Below, piece after piece: positions 3,850-51,903 of a stretch of 64,000 nt of DNA (within the stretch, counting starts at the first letter, position 1; every line of letters starts with the position of its first letter). The position numbers and the translations under genes are program-made. The stretch is from Escherichia phage slur14. The stretch lies in sequence record NC_028448.1, one strand, 5' to 3'. Below the pieces are notes generated by a model that worked only from the letters and a program-made list of their open reading frames with translations, made no database searches and was not told the origin of the DNA.

Positions 3850-6990
<3,141 letters not shown>

Positions 6991-31492: not shown

Positions 31493-33586
31493 TTATCCTT
31501 GAACGAACTTGTAAGGCATGTTTGCAATATCTATGCAAGACGCAATAATTCCAAGAGATGATTCTACTTTCTGTTTAACATTTGATGAAACAAATGATGC
31601 AAAGTCAACTCTGTCTTCTATTTCAATATCACCTGTCATTGCAACCAATTCACCAGTTTCCATTAAATGGTCTCCATCATAGATTACCGATTCGGTGAGC
31701 TCTTCCGTGGTCATAACTTCAGCTTGAATGAGTTTTGTATTATTAGATGTTGTTCCGTCATTATTAGAAGCATCAGTTATTTTATTAACTTTGACCATCA
31801 ATCCACGCGGTAGAATAACTTCAGCTTCTGTTGCTATTCCGAGACTTCCTGGATATACAACATTAACTTTATGAGCTCCATCAATTGCCCATCCTATTTG
31901 AACTTTAACGTATTCAGGATTTTCTTTATACGCTCTTATTTCGTTTGGATTAATAGTTATTCCTTCTTCATTTTTATCAACTGTTAATTCATTGCGAGCT
32001 TCTGGTTCTAAAAGACCAATACCAGCATGTGTAATTCCAAAACGTCCAAAAATGATAGGAGTTAAAGAAGTAGATACAAAATTTCTGAAATAGAATACTT
32101 TATTTTTAACTAGTGCTTCGTATATAGGAGCAGTCATACTTTGAGCACGATAAACTGTAATGCCTTCTGGTATACGATCACCATTTTCAAAAGCAGAATC
32201 TAAATTAGTTATAGCAGCTTCAATTTCTTTTTCACTCATTACTTCATAACGTTCTGGATCATAACGACCCAAAAGAAGATTATTGATGTCAGTATATCCT
32301 GAACCGCAATACTCTCTAATGCCACGCTTTTGTGATGGAGTATATTTAGAACCATCACGGGCAATAGTAATATCAATCATTGGACCTGCACCAATTCCAG
32401 AGAAACTATAAATCATTCTTTTGAGGAATTTAGTTTTTGTCGCGTTCCAGGAATTTTTAGTTATTTCTTCCCAGACTTCATCTGGCTGTCCTTTACGGGT
32501 TTTATTATGTTTATCAAGCCAAGTATCTTTATATTCTTCAAATAATTGATTAACAGCTGCTGCGTATTTCTCTAAACATTTTATTGAAGTAGTCGGTTCA
32601 TTTTTAATCGCATTAAGAATTACATCTTTAATTTTTTCAGAAACTTCATTAACCTCACTTTTTGAAAAGAATTTATAGTCATAATGAAGTTCATCTGCAG
32701 TTCCTTCGGCAATGATTTTTGCTGCCTTAGTTTTAGAAGCTAATGAATTAATTCCAATTTTCATTTCTTCTGCTTCGGGAATTAAAGGTGCAGTAGCTGG
32801 TTTATTAAAATTAGCTGCTGTAGATTCATACTTCTGGAATAATTCACTTTCAAATCTAGAAGACTCTAATGATTGACTTTGTGCAATTGCTCTACGGGAA
32901 ATTTTAACTTTAACGATTACAGCTTGATCAGAACGTTTATCATTTTCTTGTGCAATAGATGCTGCAATTGCCTCATTTTTAGTTACTTGAGCTCCAGTAT
33001 CTTTATTGATATAAACATCACCGACCTTCGATTCAACTTTAGTAAAGAGCTCGGTACTAATTTCCGGAACCCCTGGAATGTCTTCTAGCGATACATTTTT
33101 GCGATGTATAAGAATATATGCATACTTTTTATCATAATCCCAGAGTTCCTTAAGAAGGACGTATCTGCCACCTGAACGACTACGGATAAGTCTATCAGCA
33201 ATAACTTGAATTTGTCGAGCTTGACCAGCAGTTTTAGACTTAAGAATACGGAGCATACAGGCATCAATTTTATACTGACGCATTGTTTGCATTGCAACAG
33301 TAAAAACCGAATTGATATAATTAATTGGGCTTGGACCAAGACCTTTCAATTTAGCAATTGAACCTTTAGCGGTTAATGTAAAAGGAACAATATGCATCAT
33401 TTTATCGCCCATCTTTAAATCGCGATTAGTATCACCTCCAGATGTATAGGTACATAAACGAAAACCTGGTTGTTCAATTGCGTCATCAACATGAACTGAA
33501 AAAATTTGTGGTATTTTCTTCTTTGGATTTAAGTTTGTAATTGGAAGAGTAGTATCTTCGTCAAATAATTCTGTAATTAGTTCCAT
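31493..33586 (-). CDS. alt: Alt ADP-ribosyltransferase (packaged in the capsid)
   Basis: 697-698 aa (tandem ATG ATG; second has better SD spacing); N-terminus MELITELFDEDTTLPITNL as T4 Alt. Confidence 0.85.
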   Translation of the reverse strand: MELITELFDEDTTLPITNLNPKKKIPQIFSVHVDDAIEQPGFRLCTYTSGGDTNRDLKMGDKMMHIVPFTLTAKGSIAKLKGLGPSPINYINSVFTVAMQTMRQYKIDACMLRILKSKTAGQARQIQVIADRLIRSRSGGRYVLLKELWDYDKKYAYILIHRKNVSLEDIPGVPEISTELFTKVESKVGDVYINKDTGAQVTKNEAIAASIAQENDKRSDQAVIVKVKISRRAIAQSQSLESSRFESELFQKYESTAANFNKPATAPLIPEAEEMKIGINSLASKTKAAKIIAEGTADELHYDYKFFSKSEVNEVSEKIKDVILNAIKNEPTTSIKCLEKYAAAVNQLFEEYKDTWLDKHNKTRKGQPDEVWEEITKNSWNATKTKFLKRMIYSFSGIGAGPMIDITIARDGSKYTPSQKRGIREYCGSGYTDINNLLLGRYDPERYEVMSEKEIEAAITNLDSAFENGDRIPEGITVYRAQSMTAPIYEALVKNKVFYFRNFVSTSLTPIIFGRFGITHAGIGLLEPEARNELTVDKNEEGITINPNEIRAYKENPEYVKVQIGWAIDGAHKVNVVYPGSLGIATEAEVILPRGLMVKVNKITDASNNDGTTSNNTKLIQAEVMTTEELTESVIYDGDHLMETGELVAMTGDIEIEDRVDFASFVSSNVKQKVESSLGIIASCIDIANMPYKFVQG

Positions 33587-33638
33587 CATATCCTCTCTAG
33601 TGTTTATTCTATTTATAAAATTAAAGGCCCGAAGGCCT

Positions 33639-33827
33639 TTAGTAATCTAGTGGTAAGAGAGTACGATATATTTCAAACTTTGGTCCTTTTTCATAGGCAT
33701 CAAATGTTTCTGTAAATTTATTATAAGCGTATGCATCTACAAATTCGAGAATGACTTGTGATACAGAAGTAGAAACATCTCCACCTTCTTTTTGAGCAAT
33801 GACAATTGTTTCTAAGTAAGCTTTCAT
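33639..33827 (-). CDS. Hypothetical small protein
   Basis: 62 aa ORF; ATG overlaps gene 30 stop (ATGA). Confidence 0.45.
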   Translation of the reverse strand: MKAYLETIVIAQKEGGDVSTSVSQVILEFVDAYAYNKFTETFDAYEKGPKFEIYRTLLPLDY

Positions 33828-35287: not shown

Positions 35288-35553
35288 TGTTCATCCTTCA
35301 GAGTTTGATTTACAGCTCTATTATAAATCAATTCATCATTAAGCTCAGTTAAAGACCTATGATATGTAGTTCTAACTTTATTTCCTTGCATCCAGTGCTT
35401 GATATAAATGAAACCTTGCTCTACACATTTTTTAAAAATTCGTTCGTCTTTTTGAGCTCGGAATTCTGGATTGCATCTAAAAAATTGATTTACGTGACCG
35501 TAATCACGTGTAGTATTACCTTCATTTTCATAAATAGTGTGAACAACAAACAT
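35284..35553 (-). CDS. Hypothetical protein (30.1 position)
   Basis: 89 aa ORF with overlapping stop/start junctions. Confidence 0.5.
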   Translation of the reverse strand: MFVVHTIYENEGNTTRDYGHVNQFFRCNPEFRAQKDERIFKKCVEQGFIYIKHWMQGNKVRTTYHRSLTELNDELIYNRAVNQTLKDEQ

Positions 35554-36392
35554 TAGAATGCTCCTTGGAAAATATTATCACCACAAGTAGGTCTATTATA
35601 CAAATACTCTATACCGCCGGGTTTAATATAGTTCCATGTCTGAAACGGATGTGTCTGATATGGATGATATAGATGATTATAAGGATTAAATCCAGGAGTT
35701 CTCCAGGTAGTGTTCCAACGAAAAGAATCGTTTTTAATCATCTTTTCAATTACATCTTTTATAGCTTTTTCACTATCAAAACTTTCTTTATTTTCCTTTG
35801 GTGAAAAAAGCTTATTCTCTACATCGTTCCATGTATAAACTCGCTGAGCAGTTTTTGGAATACTGTCACGTTCCCCTCGAGCCATCCAATAAACAGGAAC
35901 ACTTAATATTTCACTCGCGTGATCGCAGTGGTGAGCGAGATCGTCAATATAACAAATTACGTTATATTTCTCTTTTGCCTTTTTGAACAACTCTTCTTTT
36001 GAAGAATCATGACCACACATCAGTACTTCTGAGAAGGCACCAGGAAAAAGAGCATTCAAATTAAATTGACGATTCAGCAGAGCGTCAATAGAATCACCCA
36101 GCGCTGTAACAGCTACAAAATTATAATCTTCTTTTAATTTGTTAATTACACACAGAGCATCTTTATATGGAGACAAGTAACGAATAAAATCTGAACGATT
36201 GTATTTTTCAATTAACTTGACACCAAGTTCTTCATCACAATTAAAAAGTTTACCAGGAGAAATAAATTTTTCATCTTGGATCATTTTTAAAATATGTTCC
36301 AACGGAAGATTATATTTCTGAGCAAAATAAGGAAGGCCTGATTGCCAGCTTAAACACACTCCATCAATATCAGTTAAAATAGTAGGCTTCAT
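35553..36392 (-). CDS. Putative HAD-superfamily 5'(3')-deoxyribonucleotidase-like protein with C-terminal extension
   Basis: 279 aa; N-terminal DxDGV motif (ILTDIDGVCLSW), later VTA and YIDD motifs typical of HAD phosphatases. Confidence 0.5.
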   Translation of the reverse strand: MKPTILTDIDGVCLSWQSGLPYFAQKYNLPLEHILKMIQDEKFISPGKLFNCDEELGVKLIEKYNRSDFIRYLSPYKDALCVINKLKEDYNFVAVTALGDSIDALLNRQFNLNALFPGAFSEVLMCGHDSSKEELFKKAKEKYNVICYIDDLAHHCDHASEILSVPVYWMARGERDSIPKTAQRVYTWNDVENKLFSPKENKESFDSEKAIKDVIEKMIKNDSFRWNTTWRTPGFNPYNHLYHPYQTHPFQTWNYIKPGGIEYLYNRPTCGDNIFQGAF

Positions 36393-36853
36393 AGAGAGTC
36401 TCTTAATAGGTTTAACACATCAATAAATTCAGCTTCGGTTAGTATTGTATCATCTTTTGTTAGACCACTAGCCATGCTGTGCTTCAAAACTTTTCCTTTC
36501 GAGGCTTGTAATGCATCACGAAAGCCCTTGTTTTGGATCACTGCTTCAAAATATGCATTTGTGTATAATTCTTTCCACGCCGGGGAGTATCTTGAAAATG
36601 GAACTCCAAGCCAGAAGAGGGTTCCACGGTCCTGAGCTCTTGCATAAGACCTTCCAGCTTGTTGGGCGGCAAGCCCGGATAACCCAAATATACGACGTTG
36701 TTGTTCAACGTTTTTCACCTTGCATCCTTGGAGGAATCCTTCAAGACCTCCAAATTGAATACCATCCATAACGAAAGGCCATTGGGCGAAATTACTTAAT
36801 GTACATGATGGCCACCTAAAATTGCTTCTAATCTCTAACTCAGACATTTTCAA
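36389..36853 (-). CDS. NADAR / YbiA-family (DUF1768) protein
   Basis: 154 aa; motif LSNFAQWPFVMDG resembles E. coli YbiA FSNFAAWPIKVDG recalled from memory. Confidence 0.5.
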   Translation of the reverse strand: MKMSELEIRSNFRWPSCTLSNFAQWPFVMDGIQFGGLEGFLQGCKVKNVEQQRRIFGLSGLAAQQAGRSYARAQDRGTLFWLGVPFSRYSPAWKELYTNAYFEAVIQNKGFRDALQASKGKVLKHSMASGLTKDDTILTEAEFIDVLNLLRDSL

Positions 36854-37963: not shown

Positions 37964-38000
37964 CAGGTATATAATATCATGTCCTGTACCAAAGTAAACA
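37964..38000 (-). promoter_or_regulatory. Candidate early promoter (GTTTAC ... TGaTATTAT) overlapping an 8-bp inverted repeat
   Basis: Minus strand gtttactttggtacaggacatgatattatatacc upstream of ORF 37569-37946. Confidence 0.35.
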
Positions 38001-38359: not shown

Positions 38360-38392
38360 TAATACTATCACAAAGGAACCATACTGTAAACA
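38360..38392 (-). promoter_or_regulatory. Candidate early promoter (TTTACA-17-TAGTAT)
   Basis: Minus strand ttgtttacagtatggttcctttgtgatagtattatc ~25 nt upstream of ORF 38002-38334. Confidence 0.4.
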
Positions 38393-38621: not shown

Positions 38622-39019
38622 TATAAATTCTCTTTTAAATGAAAATGCAGGACTTATTGGCATTGCCTGCGCAAGCCCTCAAGGGGAACATAGGTTTTTG
38701 GATATTTAACGACCAGGATAACCATAAACCCGTCATCATACCTTATAGCTCTTATCTGTTGCACACCGTTAGCTTAAAGGTTCCGGGTTCGATTTCTCGA
38801 GGATAAGATATATACTGATGGATATATAGGCCTTGAGGCGTACTCCCGATTGGCCATCACCTCGGGGTAGCATGCACTTGCCGCTATAAGAATAACATTC
38901 AAGAGGTACACCGTAAAACTGCCGGGGTCTTAAAACTATAATGATTCGCAAATCATTAATCAGACAGTTCGACGGCTCCTCGATTTTAGCTCACACTAAG
39001 GCAGTGAATCTCCAGTAAA

Positions 39020-47026: not shown

Positions 47027-48196
47027 TTAAAAATATTTTTTAAAACTCATCATAACTTTATCATCAACATCATTATCAATCTGTGCTACAAGGTAAGATG
47101 ACAGTTCTACTTCTTGCGGCGCGGATTGAACATTATCAGAATTAAGGTATTCACGAATCCAAGGATATGGATGTTTAACCGGAGCATCGGTAATTGGGCA
47201 TGGAAGACCGCACTGTTTCATACGAGATACAGTTAAGTAATCAATAAAGCTCCACATGCTATTTGTATTTAATCCAGGAACATCACCATCTTTAAATAAA
47301 TGAACTGCCCAATCTTTTTCTTGGCGGTTAACTTCCATGAAAATATCAACTGCTTCTTGTTCACACTCTTGAGCAATTTTAACCCATTCATCGCCATCAG
47401 TGCCAAGTTGAAGTTGACGAATAATATATTGAGTGCCTTTAAGGTGAAGCTGCTCATCACGTGCAATGAACTTCATAATCTTGGCATTACCTTCCATGAT
47501 TTCCATATTCTTGTGGAAGTTAAAGGTACATGCGAAAGATACATAAAAACGAATAGCTTCTAAGGCATTAATAACGTGCAAACAGAGGTAAAGAGATTTC
47601 ATTAGCTCTCGTTTGGCGTATTCAACGACTTTACCAAGTTCATCTTTGCGCCAACCTTCAGACAAAATTCCTTCGTATTCTTCTTTAGCGTTTTCCCATT
47701 CACGGGTTTTAACCAAGACATCATCGTAATATCGCCCAATGGACTCAGCACGTTTCATAATAGCTTCATCTAATACAATCTCATCAAACACCTTCGATGG
47801 ATCAGTATAAAGATTTCGCATGATATGTGTATATGAACGGCTGTGAATAGTTTCACTAAAAGTCCACGTAGCAACCCATGTATCAAGGCTTGGGTCTGAA
47901 ATTAATGACATAAGTACAGCAGATGGCGCGCGACCCTGAATGCTATCCAAAAGTGATTGATACTTCAGGTTATTAGTAAAAATATTCTGTTGATACTGAG
48001 GAAGTTTATTAAATTGTGCAGCATCCATCATCAAGTTTACTTCTTCAGGACGCCAGAAAAATGATAATTGCTTTTCAGTCAAATCTTCAAAAACTTTATG
48101 GCGTTGAATATCATAACGCGCAATACCAAGACCTGAACCGAAGAACATAGGTTCTTTTAAAACATCAACTGGATTTGTATTAAAAACTGTGCTCAT
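47027..48196 (-). CDS. nrdB: Ribonucleotide reductase small subunit, uninterrupted
   Basis: 389 aa continuous ORF; di-iron ligand motifs; no intron. Confidence 0.9.
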   Translation of the reverse strand: MSTVFNTNPVDVLKEPMFFGSGLGIARYDIQRHKVFEDLTEKQLSFFWRPEEVNLMMDAAQFNKLPQYQQNIFTNNLKYQSLLDSIQGRAPSAVLMSLISDPSLDTWVATWTFSETIHSRSYTHIMRNLYTDPSKVFDEIVLDEAIMKRAESIGRYYDDVLVKTREWENAKEEYEGILSEGWRKDELGKVVEYAKRELMKSLYLCLHVINALEAIRFYVSFACTFNFHKNMEIMEGNAKIMKFIARDEQLHLKGTQYIIRQLQLGTDGDEWVKIAQECEQEAVDIFMEVNRQEKDWAVHLFKDGDVPGLNTNSMWSFIDYLTVSRMKQCGLPCPITDAPVKHPYPWIREYLNSDNVQSAPQEVELSSYLVAQIDNDVDDKVMMSFKKYF

Positions 48197-50829: not shown

Positions 50830-51046
50830 ATTGTTTTTCCGTTAATACAGTAATATCGTAGTAACAGTCAGAAGAAGTTTTAACTGTGGAAATTTTATTG
50901 TCAAAATATTCACGAGTCATTTTATGAGTATAGTATTTTTTACCATAAATGATAATAGGCTGTTCTGGTCCTGGAACTTCTAACTCGCTTGGGTTAGGAA
51001 GTGTAAAAAGAACAACGCCAGAAGTATCTTTAAATCGTAAAATCAT
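50783..51046 (-). CDS. Hypothetical protein
   Basis: 87 aa ORF; start overlaps td stop. Confidence 0.45.
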
Positions 51047-51903
51047 ATTGCCATTTTCCCTTTAATTGCTGGATGCGATTCATAATTTTCAAGGATAAAA
51101 TCTTTCGGTTTCATGTATTCAGTTAACCAGTAAAGCTGTGTTTCGGTGTCACAATTTCCAAACTCTATAGGCCAATCAATTTTAAGTTCACACAGTTCTT
51201 TAGGCTCACGACGTAAAATTTCTTTACATTGCTCAGTATGATTCATATAGATGTGAGTATTACCACCAGAAAATATCAAATCTCCTGGGATAAGATTACA
51301 CATCTTAGCCACAATATGCGTCAAGGCAGCGTACGAGGCAATGTTGAATGGCAATCCCAAGAAAACATCTACACTTCTTTGGTACCATTGTAAATCAAGA
51401 TAACCATTACGCACATTAAACTGATAGAACATATGACAGGGCGGTAATGCCATTTGATTGATTTCAGCTGGATTCCATGCTGAAACGATTTGACGTCGAT
51501 CAGTTGGTAATTTTTTAATACGATCAATAGTTTCAACTAATTGATCCACACCACCGAAATCACGCCATTGTTTACCGTATATAGGACCAAGTTCACCACT
51601 ATGATATCCTAGGTCTTTAGCTTGGTTTTCATAGTTATCGTCCCAAATAGTTTTACCTTGAATAAGACTGCCATGAGTGCGAAGACGTAAATCATTAACA
51701 TTGGTAGAACCGGAAATAAACCATAGAAGCTCAGCAATGCATGCATTCCAGGCGAGCTTTTTAGTTGTTACTGCAGGAAAACCTTTTGTTAAATCCCAAC
51801 GCAATTTAGTACCGAACAAAGCAATTGTTCCTGTGCCTGTTCGGTCATCGGTTTCATAGCCATTTTCAAAAATGTCTTTAATTAAATCTTGGTATTGTTT
51901 CAT
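51043..51903 (-). CDS. td: Thymidylate synthase, uninterrupted
   Basis: 286 aa continuous [19 protein letters not shown]...; catalytic PPCH motif; no intron. Confidence 0.9.

Follow-up and report, generated by a model that had tools for sequence, protein, structure and literature searches.

A minus-strand open reading frame in the early gene cluster of Escherichia phage slur14 (NC_028448.1; the 64,000-nt stretch that was analyzed is referred to here as the window) raises the question of whether a NADAR-type protein is encoded a short distance from the ADP-ribosyltransferase gene alt, and whether such a protein would protect phage DNA against a host DarTG system, cooperate with Alt or serve in metabolism.

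Gene structure and relation to phage T4 gp30.3

The reading frame is uninterrupted and ends at position 36389 (Table 1). It was described in the earlier note as a frame of 154 amino acids spanning 36389-36853, and it is indeed a real conserved gene, but the TTG start assumed there is probably two codons too long. As the published numbering of E36 and K43 fits only the ATG at 36847, the adfN product probably has 152 amino acids, and the two codons upstream of this ATG are probably not translated. Both T4 and PP01 are annotated with a gene of 459 nt and 152 amino acids that begins at the equivalent ATG. The ATGA arrangement at the junction with gene 30.2 was also identified in T4, PP01, KP27 and MP1, and suggests that the translation of adfN and 30.2 may be coupled. 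The nested frame 30.3' of T4 was considered as a second product and rejected here, as its ATG is replaced by ACG in slur14 and the frame contains an internal stop.

The window comes from a T4-like phage (Tequatrovirus), the region is 100% identical to that of phage slur03, and the gene order 30.8-30.7-30.6-30.5-30.4-30.3-30.2-30.1-30-alt.1-alt is that of T4, the slot between 30.4 and 30.2 being common to T4 and PP01. The slur14 protein is identical to T4 gp30.3 at 149 of 152 positions (98%). Twelve nucleotide differences separate the two genes, and the three that change an amino acid (T16 for A, V103 for A and M125 for I) leave E36, K43 and H123 untouched; T16 and M125 are the residues common to more distant family members. 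These substitutions would not be expected to cause a functional difference. From residue 126 to the end there is no difference from T4 gp30.3, so that the C-terminal helix is intact, and residues 138-151 were modelled as a helix with high confidence by AlphaFold. In phage RB69, which is sensitive to DarTG1, a frameshift allele truncates the protein 15 residues early and abolishes protection (Johannesman et al., PMC11257639 / PMC11825919). A pseudogene of this type is ruled out in slur14 because adfN is full length. The T4 AdfN described in Nat Commun 2025 (PMC11825919) and the slur14 protein thus agree in length, genomic slot, the residues E36, K43 and H123, and the C-terminal helix.

Table 1. 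Coordinates of adfN, its functional residues and the neighbouring expression signals in the window
Feature	Position	Strand	Remarks
adfN (gene 30.3) coding sequence	36389..36847	-	152 amino acids plus TGA stop; phage-type NADAR DNA ADP-ribosylglycohydrolase (very probable)
Extra codons TTG AAA	36848..36853	-	within the frame of the earlier note; T4 and PP01 annotations begin at the ATG
ATGTCTGA overlap of adfN start and gene 30.4 stop	36840..36847	-	read from sequence
ATGA overlap of adfN stop (TGA) and 30.2 start (ATG)	36389..36392	-	read from sequence
SNFAQWPFVMDG, N-terminal NADAR signature, residues 18-29	36761..36796	-	aligned to YbiA SNFAAWPIKVDG
GAA, catalytic Glu36	36740..36742	-	invariant; aligns with Glu of YbiA SEHYFQ
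AAG, catalytic Lys43	36719..36721	-	invariant; aligns with Lys of YbiA FQAQK
CAC, His123	36479..36481	-	third active-site position; invariant
Last 14 codons and stop, in the C-terminal helix (residues 138-151)	36389..36433	-	approximately the segment missing in the RB69 frameshift allele
GC-rich hairpin AAAGGCC-TTCG-GGCCTTT at the alt.1 stop	33622..33641	-	terminator scan; shares three bases with the 3' end of the reading frame
TATAAATA, T4 late-promoter consensus	33610..33617	-	20 nt upstream of the alt ATG; from sequence
Early-type promoter-like site GTTTACT-N16-TG-TATTAT, upstream of 30.7	37971..37998	-	consensus scan and sequence
Early-type promoter-like site GTTTACA-N17-TAGTAT with TG, upstream of 30.8	38362..38390	-	putative; consensus scan

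Membership of the NADAR superfamily

The SNFAxWP...DG motif, on which the assignment to the YbiA/NADAR family had originally been based, is present: residues 17-29 (LSNFAQWPFVMDG) align with FSNFAAWPIKVDG of E. coli YbiA, and S18, N19, F20, F25, D28 and G29 are invariant in an 18-sequence family alignment. The catalytic Glu and Lys of the E-x6-K segment that follows the motif are present as E36 and K43. A search of PDB sequences with the family profile (hmmsearch) recovered YbiA with E=4e-4, and hhalign of the family profile against YbiA gave a probability of 94.6% and E=7.2e-8; in the reciprocal test YbiA matched PF08010 weakly (E=0.004). The AlphaFold model of slur14 AdfN (pLDDT 92.5, pTM 0.88) exhibits the alpha+beta fold of NADAR proteins, and its top three Foldseek matches were 2b3w, 8bau and 8bat, with a probability of at least 0.99 each, all other matches having E>1. 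The protein matches PF08010 (Phage_30_3) over all profile positions (1-138 of 138) with E=1.3e-69 and 232.8 bits, the gathering cut-off being 36 bits, and homologues were identified by tblastn in 1,509 phage records.

Direct scans gave a different picture. PF08719, the NADAR model, was not matched in a direct Pfam HMM scan even at E<=10, whereas YbiA reaches 133 bits with it, the phage branch being placed by Pfam in the separate family PF08010. The slur14 protein had no match in hmmscan searches of NCBIfam and PADLOC, a single-sequence phmmer search of the PDB returned no NADAR protein and only a chance match to an ATP-pyrophosphatase (E=0.5), and PHROGs offered only phrog_652, 'unknown function'. 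Because these direct single-sequence and HMM scans were negative, methods based on a family profile or on structure are needed for the assignment. The earlier note would have abandoned its reading if no NADAR/DUF1768 profile matched; this is what the plain Pfam scan gives, but YbiA is found with the family profile and by structure. With the conserved catalytic residues, these matches support slur14 gp30.3 as a stand-alone phage member of the NADAR superfamily (de Souza and Aravind 2012; Schuller et al. 2023), an assignment credited in the literature to de Souza and Aravind (2012).

None of the 18 homologues, which go down to 37% identity, departs from the active-site residues E36, K43 and H123. 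The third position is occupied by Glu in the YbiA branch, by Asp in the DarT-associated branch and by His in the phage branch, and slur14 AdfN carries the His of the phage branch. H123 can be placed opposite the Glu of YbiA, since the hhalign block stops at L121-K122, aligned with L-V of YbiA, and the next YbiA residue is Glu. In T4 AdfN, the E36A and K43A substitutions each impair rescue (Johannesman et al., PMC11257639 / PMC11825919).

Function against DarTG1

The function of gp30.3 is already known from work published in 2023-2025 (enzymatic activity in 2024, anti-DarTG1 role in 2024-2025). Experiments with the T4 protein, 98% identical to that of slur14, have demonstrated the protection against DarTG-type defence that the earlier note offered as a conjecture, and for DarTG1 only. 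Deletion of adfN renders T2 and T4 about 10^4-fold (about 4 logs) more sensitive to DarTG1, AdfN supplied ectopically, in trans and by itself, is enough for RB69 to regain full plaquing on DarTG1 hosts, and purified T4 AdfN strips ADP-ribose off DarT1-modified DNA; no interaction between AdfN and DarT1 was seen in a two-hybrid assay, and AdfN counters DarTG1, which modifies guanine, with no effect on DarTG2, which modifies thymidine (Johannesman et al., PMC11257639 / Nat Commun 2025, PMC11825919). Hydrolysis of guanosine-ADPr in vitro has been reported, and all NADARs tested so far act on guanine-ADPr, not on thymidine-ADPr (PMC11125620). In a transposon screen, 30.3/adfN was conditionally essential, insertions being lost only on DarTG1 hosts (bioRxiv 10.1101/2025.11.20.689424).

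With 98% identity to the T4 protein, conserved catalytic residues and an intact C-terminus, the slur14 gene can be identified with high confidence, on sequence grounds, as adfN, encoding an anti-DarTG1 guanine-ADP-ribose DNA glycohydrolase. In the proposed mechanism, AdfN would be made early in infection from the transcription unit extending from 30.7 to alt.1. Once host DarTG1 is triggered, DarT1 would ADP-ribosylate guanines of the phage DNA and block replication; AdfN would then hydrolyse the N-glycosidic bond of guanine-ADP-ribose through Glu36, Lys43 and the phage-specific His123, so that replication is restored. AdfN would act on the DNA lesion without binding the toxin. As its target is the lesion and not the toxin, it would work like a DarG1 antitoxin, though one that is carried toxin-free. 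The intact adfN allele of slur14 predicts resistance to DarTG1-carrying hosts.

The gene is still listed as 'hypothetical protein' in nearly all phage records inspected. As plain Pfam, NCBIfam and PADLOC scans miss the nature of AdfN, transfer of the annotation (adfN, anti-DarTG1) to slur14 and its relatives appears justified.

Transcription of the locus and the relationship to alt

It had been proposed that this gene shares an early transcription unit with the DNA ligase gene, a HAD-like nucleotidase gene (30.2) and alt. For 30.2, 30.1 and ligase the proposal is consistent with the sequence, as their stop and start codons overlap or abut and no terminator lies between them. The promoter-like site upstream of 30.7 may be the nearest candidate promoter for the 30.7...adfN...30...alt.1 unit, and the second putative site, upstream of 30.8, is preceded by a terminator-like hairpin at 38441-38420. 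Promoter-like sequences of this kind suggest that adfN is expressed early. The early unit to which adfN belongs probably ends at the GC-rich hairpin at the alt.1 stop. The TATAAATA late promoter directly before alt indicates that alt is expressed separately and late; 18 matches to this sequence were observed in the window, versus 8.2 expected. The hairpin and the late promoter thus set alt apart from the unit to which it had been assigned.

These signals bear on the possibility that the NADAR protein forms an ADP-ribosylation module with Alt, in which modification of host or phage proteins by Alt (or by ModA/ModB) would be reversed or tuned and DarT would not be the target. Alt is the nearest ADP-ribosyltransferase; its gene follows adfN at a distance of 2.8 kb, in the same orientation, and its ADP-ribosyltransferase domain (PF03496, E=1.9e-36) is of the exoenzyme type and not DarT. 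In RNA polymerase alpha, the residue modified by Alt is an arginine. The tested NADARs act on guanine-ADPr, whereas Alt modifies proteins of the host, among them the alpha subunit of RNA polymerase (PMC11125620 for NADARs). In addition, Alt is recorded in T4 as a capsid-packaged protein, and adfN and alt do not stay linked across phages: KP27 has no alt beside the ligase gene, Acinetobacter phage Kimel carries alt on the other strand, and in Aeromonas phage G2, Ralstonia phage RSP15 and Serratia phage PS2 the AdfN homologue occurs by itself. AdfN alone is sufficient for the rescue of RB69 in trans (PMC11257639 / PMC11825919). The functional module with Alt was rejected on the transcription signals and the non-conserved linkage, and is considered highly improbable.

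Alternative substrates

A second alternative is that AdfN mainly degrades soluble ADP-ribose-derived signals or NAD metabolites, in response to TIR/Thoeris-type or NAD-depletion defences, and that its activity on DNA is secondary. The genomic context in Aeromonas phage G2, where a PRPP synthetase gene is found two genes downstream of the homologue and a nicotinamide phosphoribosyltransferase gene nearby, is in line with such a role. However, the purified protein acts on ADP-ribosylated DNA (PMC11825919; PMC11125620), the phenotype seen genetically for T4 adfN is confined to DarTG1 (PMC11825919; bioRxiv 10.1101/2025.11.20.689424), and no evidence for a soluble substrate of AdfN was found, so that there is very little probability that this is the main function. 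A housekeeping role as an N-glycosidase of the YbiA type, with intermediates of the riboflavin pathway as substrates, is hardly credible, even though YbiA is the closest in sequence of the proteins with solved structures and has a nearly identical N-terminal motif, as the Glu of the YbiA branch is replaced by His in every member of the family alignment, AdfN clusters nearest to the DarT-associated NADARs in the published phylogeny (Johannesman et al., PMC11825919), and riboflavin damage control is of no evident need to a phage.

Dependence on T-even infection and gene 30.2

Within the anti-DarTG1 role of AdfN, uninfected E. coli are not protected from DarT1 by T4 AdfN, and T5 and Bas25 benefit hardly at all (PMC11125620; PMC11825919), and the mechanism in vivo thus requires T-even infection. 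DNA modification is not the reason for this limit, and a T-even-encoded partner protein was proposed by the authors (PMC11825919). The product of 30.2 (35553-36392) is a candidate for this partner because of the ATGA overlap, the maintained proximity of its gene to adfN and ligase, and a nearly equal distribution. It was identified in 1,437 phage records and adfN in the 1,509 mentioned above, with similar genus counts, and in the distant Straboviridae KP27, Kimel and MP1 gene 30.2 keeps its place beside or close to adfN and borders the DNA ligase gene. As a partner, gp30.2 might act on the ADP-ribose set free by AdfN, or might hold AdfN at DNA that is replicating or nicked. However, conserved synteny is common by descent in T4-like phages, AdfN homologues occur alone in phages G2, RSP15 and PS2, and adfN alone is named as lost in the accessible part of the DarTG1 transposon screen (bioRxiv 10.1101/2025.11.20.689424); a partner role of gp30.2 is therefore regarded as improbable.

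Motifs suggest that gp30.2 is HAD-like, and its description as a nucleotidase is tentative. All four HAD-phosphatase signature motifs were identified (D8xD10G, T96, K132/K142 and D150-D151), and they are invariant in five homologues, but the database matches are weak (PHROG polynucleotide kinase, E=0.0036; 5'(3')-deoxyribonucleotidase, E=1.4). Matches in PDB searches were non-significant, and the single-sequence AlphaFold model (pLDDT 34.5) is too low in confidence for its fold to be read.

Comparison with known ADP-ribosylhydrolases

DarG1 of E. coli C7 and Geobacter lovleyi (PDB 8bat) has an N-terminal extension that is missing from slur14 AdfN, in which the NADAR motif begins at residue 17 of 152, and carries Asp at the third active-site position in place of His123. 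DarG1 is an antitoxin, whereas T4 AdfN cannot serve as one in uninfected cells (PMC11125620; PMC11825919). No darT1 toxin gene is adjacent to adfN, whose neighbours are 30.4 and 30.2, and slur14 AdfN differs from DarG1 in matching no PADLOC model.

E. coli YbiA (2b3w, PF08719), with 18-25% identity to slur14 AdfN, differs at the branch-defining position, where it has Glu and not His; it is a housekeeping N-glycosidase of a LexA operon that gives no protection from DarT1 in vivo (PMC11125620). The phage NADARs of the Bas32/Bas60 type and AdfM share the strategy of AdfN, in which the phage carries an orphan hydrolase, similar to an antitoxin, that removes the marks of DarT from DNA. The Bas32 and Bas60 proteins belong to other NADAR clades and, unlike AdfN, are active in uninfected cells as well (PMC11825919). 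AdfM (T4 Tk.4) has a macrodomain fold, unlike AdfN, and counters the thymidine-modifying DarTG2 (PMC11825919; bioRxiv 10.1101/2025.11.20.689424).

A structured RNA between rIII and 30.9

Elsewhere in the window, an unannotated structured RNA of 146 nt (38743-38888, minus strand) was identified between rIII and 30.9. Natural deletions of this element occur in T4 and PP01, and 402 phage records can supply a larger alignment of it. It had no match in Rfam at the gathering threshold or at E<=1, no tRNA was detected in it by ARAGORN, and its single-sequence folding z-scores (-0.95 and -1.69) were not significant. Its 21-mers gave no match in 185,579 scanned genomes of bacteria and archaea, and a literature search by sequence and keywords found no report. 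The RNA has strong covariation support and, although unrelated to adfN, is the more novel object of the two in the window.

Identity and locus of the gene

The window belongs to the genome of a T4-like phage (genus Tequatrovirus), and its minus strand carries the classical T4 gene order 30.8, 30.7, 30.6, 30.5, 30.4, 30.3, 30.2, 30.1, 30 (DNA ligase), alt.1 and alt, with rIII, 31 and cd placed upstream of this series. The NADAR/YbiA-like reading frame described in the earlier note is gene 30.3, now adfN. A mechanical ORF list starts it with a TTG at 36853 (154 aa), but in T4 and PP01 the gene is annotated with 459 nt and an ATG equivalent to 36847, which shares bases with the 30.4 stop (ATGTCTGA); at the other end, the 30.3 stop overlaps the ATG of 30.2 (ATGA). 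Since the published catalytic numbering (E36, K43) fits the ATG start exactly, 36389-36847 (152 aa) was taken as the gene, so that the reading frame of the note (36389-36853) stands, probably without its first two codons.

The Pfam family PF08010 (Phage_30_3) covers gp30.3 end to end (E=1.3e-69). The protein is identical to T4 gp30.3 at 149 of 152 residues, three of the 12 nucleotide differences between the two genes being protein-changing. Over the surrounding 1.3 kb, identity is 100% with Escherichia phage slur03 and at least 95% with more than 440 other phage records. A tblastn search identified AdfN homologues in 1,509 phage records, the majority from T4-like phages of Escherichia, Klebsiella, Aeromonas, Acinetobacter, Vibrio and others.

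For the T4 internal ORF 30.3', nested in adfN in another frame, the comparison with T4 argues against a maintained protein-coding gene. Its ATG is replaced by ACG, a synonymous change in the adfN frame, and Arg58 by an in-frame stop; including these, seven positions differ in the 30.3' frame versus three of 152 codons in adfN, and selection therefore acts on the 30.3 frame.

The G+C content of adfN is 41.8% versus 36.2% across the whole window (94th percentile among 459-nt windows), and its GC3 is 33% versus 16-25% in the adjacent alt.1, 30, 30.1, 30.2, 30.4 and 30.5. This composition is compatible with the published idea of acquisition from a bacterial DarG1-like NADAR. Directly upstream, comparison with PP01 shows a small mosaic replacement: the PP01 30.4-like gene (PP01 5793-6008) is only 47% identical to slur14 30.4, and PP01 has no 30.5, whereas identity to the slur14 counterparts is 95-99% for the genes on either side.

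Features on the minus strand of the window
Feature	Coordinates	Strand	Remarks
alt	31493-33589	minus	698-aa Alt
Terminator-like hairpin	33641-33622	minus	terminator scan; first downstream of the early promoter-like sites
T4 late-promoter consensus TATAAATA	directly after the hairpin	minus	20 nt upstream of alt ATG
adfN (30.3)	36389-36847	minus	152 aa
Equivalent of T4 ORF 30.3'	36484-36711	minus	nested in adfN, other frame
Early-type promoter-like site	37998-37971	minus	T4 early-type, upstream of adfN
Early-type promoter-like site	38390-38362	minus	T4 early-type, upstream of adfN
Insertion relative to T4 and PP01	38742-38894		153 nt, rIII-30.9 spacer
Candidate structured RNA	38743-38888	minus	conservation and covariation; unannotated

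Membership in the NADAR family

The NADAR motif noticed earlier is present as residues 17-29 of gp30.3 (LSNFAQWPFVMDG), followed by E36-GFLQGC-K43. The plain profile check on NADAR/DUF1768 that the note had proposed as its own criterion went against the idea, as a Pfam scan gave no match of AdfN to PF08719 (NADAR) even at E<=10. NCBIfam and PADLOC scans of AdfN likewise gave no matches, and phmmer against PDB sequences returned nothing relevant. Membership is nevertheless supported by more sensitive comparisons. A profile of 18 full-length AdfN members, reaching down to 37% identity, matches E. coli YbiA (PDB 2b3w) with E=4e-4; hhalign aligns AdfN residues 14-122 with YbiA 26-124 (probability 94.6%, E=7e-8), and in the reciprocal search YbiA matches PF08010 below threshold. 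The AlphaFold2 model built from the 18-member alignment is confident (pLDDT 92.5, pTM 0.88). With this model, Foldseek ranks three PDB structures first, namely YbiA, the NADAR-ADP-ribose complex from Phytophthora (8bau) and the DarT-associated NADAR of Geobacter lovleyi (8bat), all further matches having E>1. Across the 18 members E36, K43 and H123 are invariant. The site of H123 is occupied by Glu in the YbiA branch and by Asp in the DarT-associated branch, and a His at this third active-site position has been described as the hallmark of the NADAR phage branch (PMC11543638).

Function

NADARs reverse DarT1 guanine ADP-ribosylation, and a phage branch of the family has been noted (Schuller et al. 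2023, PMC11543638). In vitro, T4 gp30.3 hydrolysed guanosine-ADPr and not thymidine-ADPr, and it did not rescue E. coli from DarT1 (2024, PMC11125620). T-even resistance to the defence system DarTG1 was mapped to 30.3, which was renamed adfN, by Johannesman et al. (bioRxiv 2024, PMC11257639; Nat Commun 2025, PMC11825919). In that work, T2 or T4 without adfN plaqued about four logs less on DarTG1, and AdfN in trans rescued RB69, whose own allele is frameshifted and lacks the last 15 residues; rescue was impaired by E36A and K43A. Purified AdfN removed ADP-ribose from DarT1-modified DNA and did not bind DarT1, and DarTG2 was unaffected by AdfN (PMC11257639; PMC11825919). According to the final version, AdfN is still required by T4 without any DNA modifications (PMC11825919). 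An independent transposon screen confirmed that 30.3/adfN is dispensable on K-12 and that insertions are lost on DarTG1 hosts (bioRxiv 10.1101/2025.11.20.689424).

The anti-DarT role suggested by the note is correct in substance, as judged from adfN deletion, rescue in trans, the purified enzyme and the transposon screen for the T4 protein; adfN is a gene already characterised. Because both the catalytic residues and an intact C-terminal helix are present in slur14 AdfN, it would be expected with high confidence to have the same anti-DarTG1 function as its T4 counterpart.

A T-even-encoded partner protein of AdfN has been proposed (PMC11825919), for which the gene 30.2 product is a candidate of low probability. 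A HAD-like assignment of gp30.2 is plausible from its sequence: five homologues show no variation in any of the four HAD signature motifs, with weak matches to a polynucleotide-kinase PHROG (E=0.0036) and a 5'(3')-deoxyribonucleotidase (E=1.4); the single-sequence structure model has a pLDDT of 34.5. In T-even phages gp30.2 carries a C-terminal extension of about 80 residues (35553-35790) with a high content of aromatic residues, Pro and His (...PGFNPYNHLYHPYQTHPFQTWNYIKPGG...), whereas the homologues of KP27, Kimel and MP1 end after the HAD-like domain.

Transcription unit and relation to Alt

The note had placed the gene in one early unit with the ligase, the HAD-like nucleotidase and Alt. 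Stop and start codons overlap or abut throughout the 30.x cluster, and a terminator scan found no terminator-like sites between the two early promoter-like sites and the hairpin preceding alt, which is consistent with predicted co-transcription of adfN with 30.2, 30.1 and the ligase gene. The proposal does not extend to alt, which is set apart by this hairpin and the late-promoter consensus, and whose product is described as capsid-packaged (T4 sequence record).

The grouping of 30.3, 30.2 and ligase is kept in Slopekvirus KP27, Lazarusvirus Kimel and Gualtarvirus MP1, but alt is not at the KP27 locus, lies on the opposite strand in Kimel and is separated by an annotated terminator in MP1. None of these neighbours accompanies the AdfN homologue in Aeromonas phage G2, Ralstonia phage RSP15 or Serratia phage PS2. 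A functional ADP-ribosylation module with Alt is not supported, because AdfN alone in trans fully restored RB69 plaquing on DarTG1 (PMC11257639).

Of the NAD salvage genes in Aeromonas phage vB_AdhaM_G2 (6001-10536), ribose-phosphate pyrophosphokinase follows two genes downstream of the AdfN homologue, and nicotinamide phosphoribosyltransferase is about 2.5 kb away from it; Iyer et al. 2022 had already described this type of neighbourhood.

As for alt itself, the gene is a divergence hot spot as judged by identity: Alt shares only 70% identity with its T4 counterpart but 98% with PP01 Alt, and the flanking ligase, 30.1, 30.2 and adfN are 98-100% identical to T4. A further Alt-like gene lies downstream in PP01, and the remnants alt.-1 and alt.-2 are present in T4.

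Elsewhere, the whole 64-kb window contains no Rfam matches and no tRNA genes. Two uninterrupted ORFs, 51043-51903 (286 aa) and 47027-48196 (389 aa), presumably occupy the td and nrdB slots by T4 gene order. The T4 td and nrdB genes carry group I introns; slur14 appears intron-less at both putative genes.

A candidate structured RNA between rIII and 30.9

Composition and synteny checks revealed an insertion in the rIII-30.9 spacer that is absent from T4 and PP01 through a clean deletion. Over a core of about 135 nt, identity is 80-96% among T4-like phages from nine genera or more (402 phage records), namely Tequatrovirus (a subset), Dhakavirus, Moonvirus, Karamvirus, Kanagawavirus, Jiaodavirus, Marfavirus, Muldoonvirus and an Edwardsiella phage. 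The proteins of these phages are far more diverged; for comparison, slur14 AdfN and its homologues in Klebsiella T4-like phages share about 41% identity. At all annotated loci inspected, the element is flanked by rIII and by a small downstream gene, which is called 30.9 wherever it has a name; the sequence around the element has diverged completely.

On the minus strand, RNAalifold together with direct counts of pairs supports a predicted four-way junction made up of seven helices with 44 base pairs. Standard pairs occupy 99.2% of sequence/pair cells versus 24-43% with partners slid by 1-3 columns, compensatory double changes occur at 13 pairs versus 0-2 in the slid controls, and none of 500 shuffles attained the observed pairing values. 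The G-U pairs, one of them U-G in 16 of 17 distinct sequences, fix the minus strand as the transcribed one. No Rfam 15 family matches the element, ARAGORN finds no tRNA in it, a 21-mer from its invariant 3' part occurs in none of 185,579 bacterial and archaeal genomes, and a literature search by sequence did not find it. With a covariance model, a single copy is detected in the window, whereas the T4, PP01, KP27, Kimel and MP1 loci give no match. The element may be a stable small RNA of the phage, or it may act in cis within the rIII or 30.9 transcripts.
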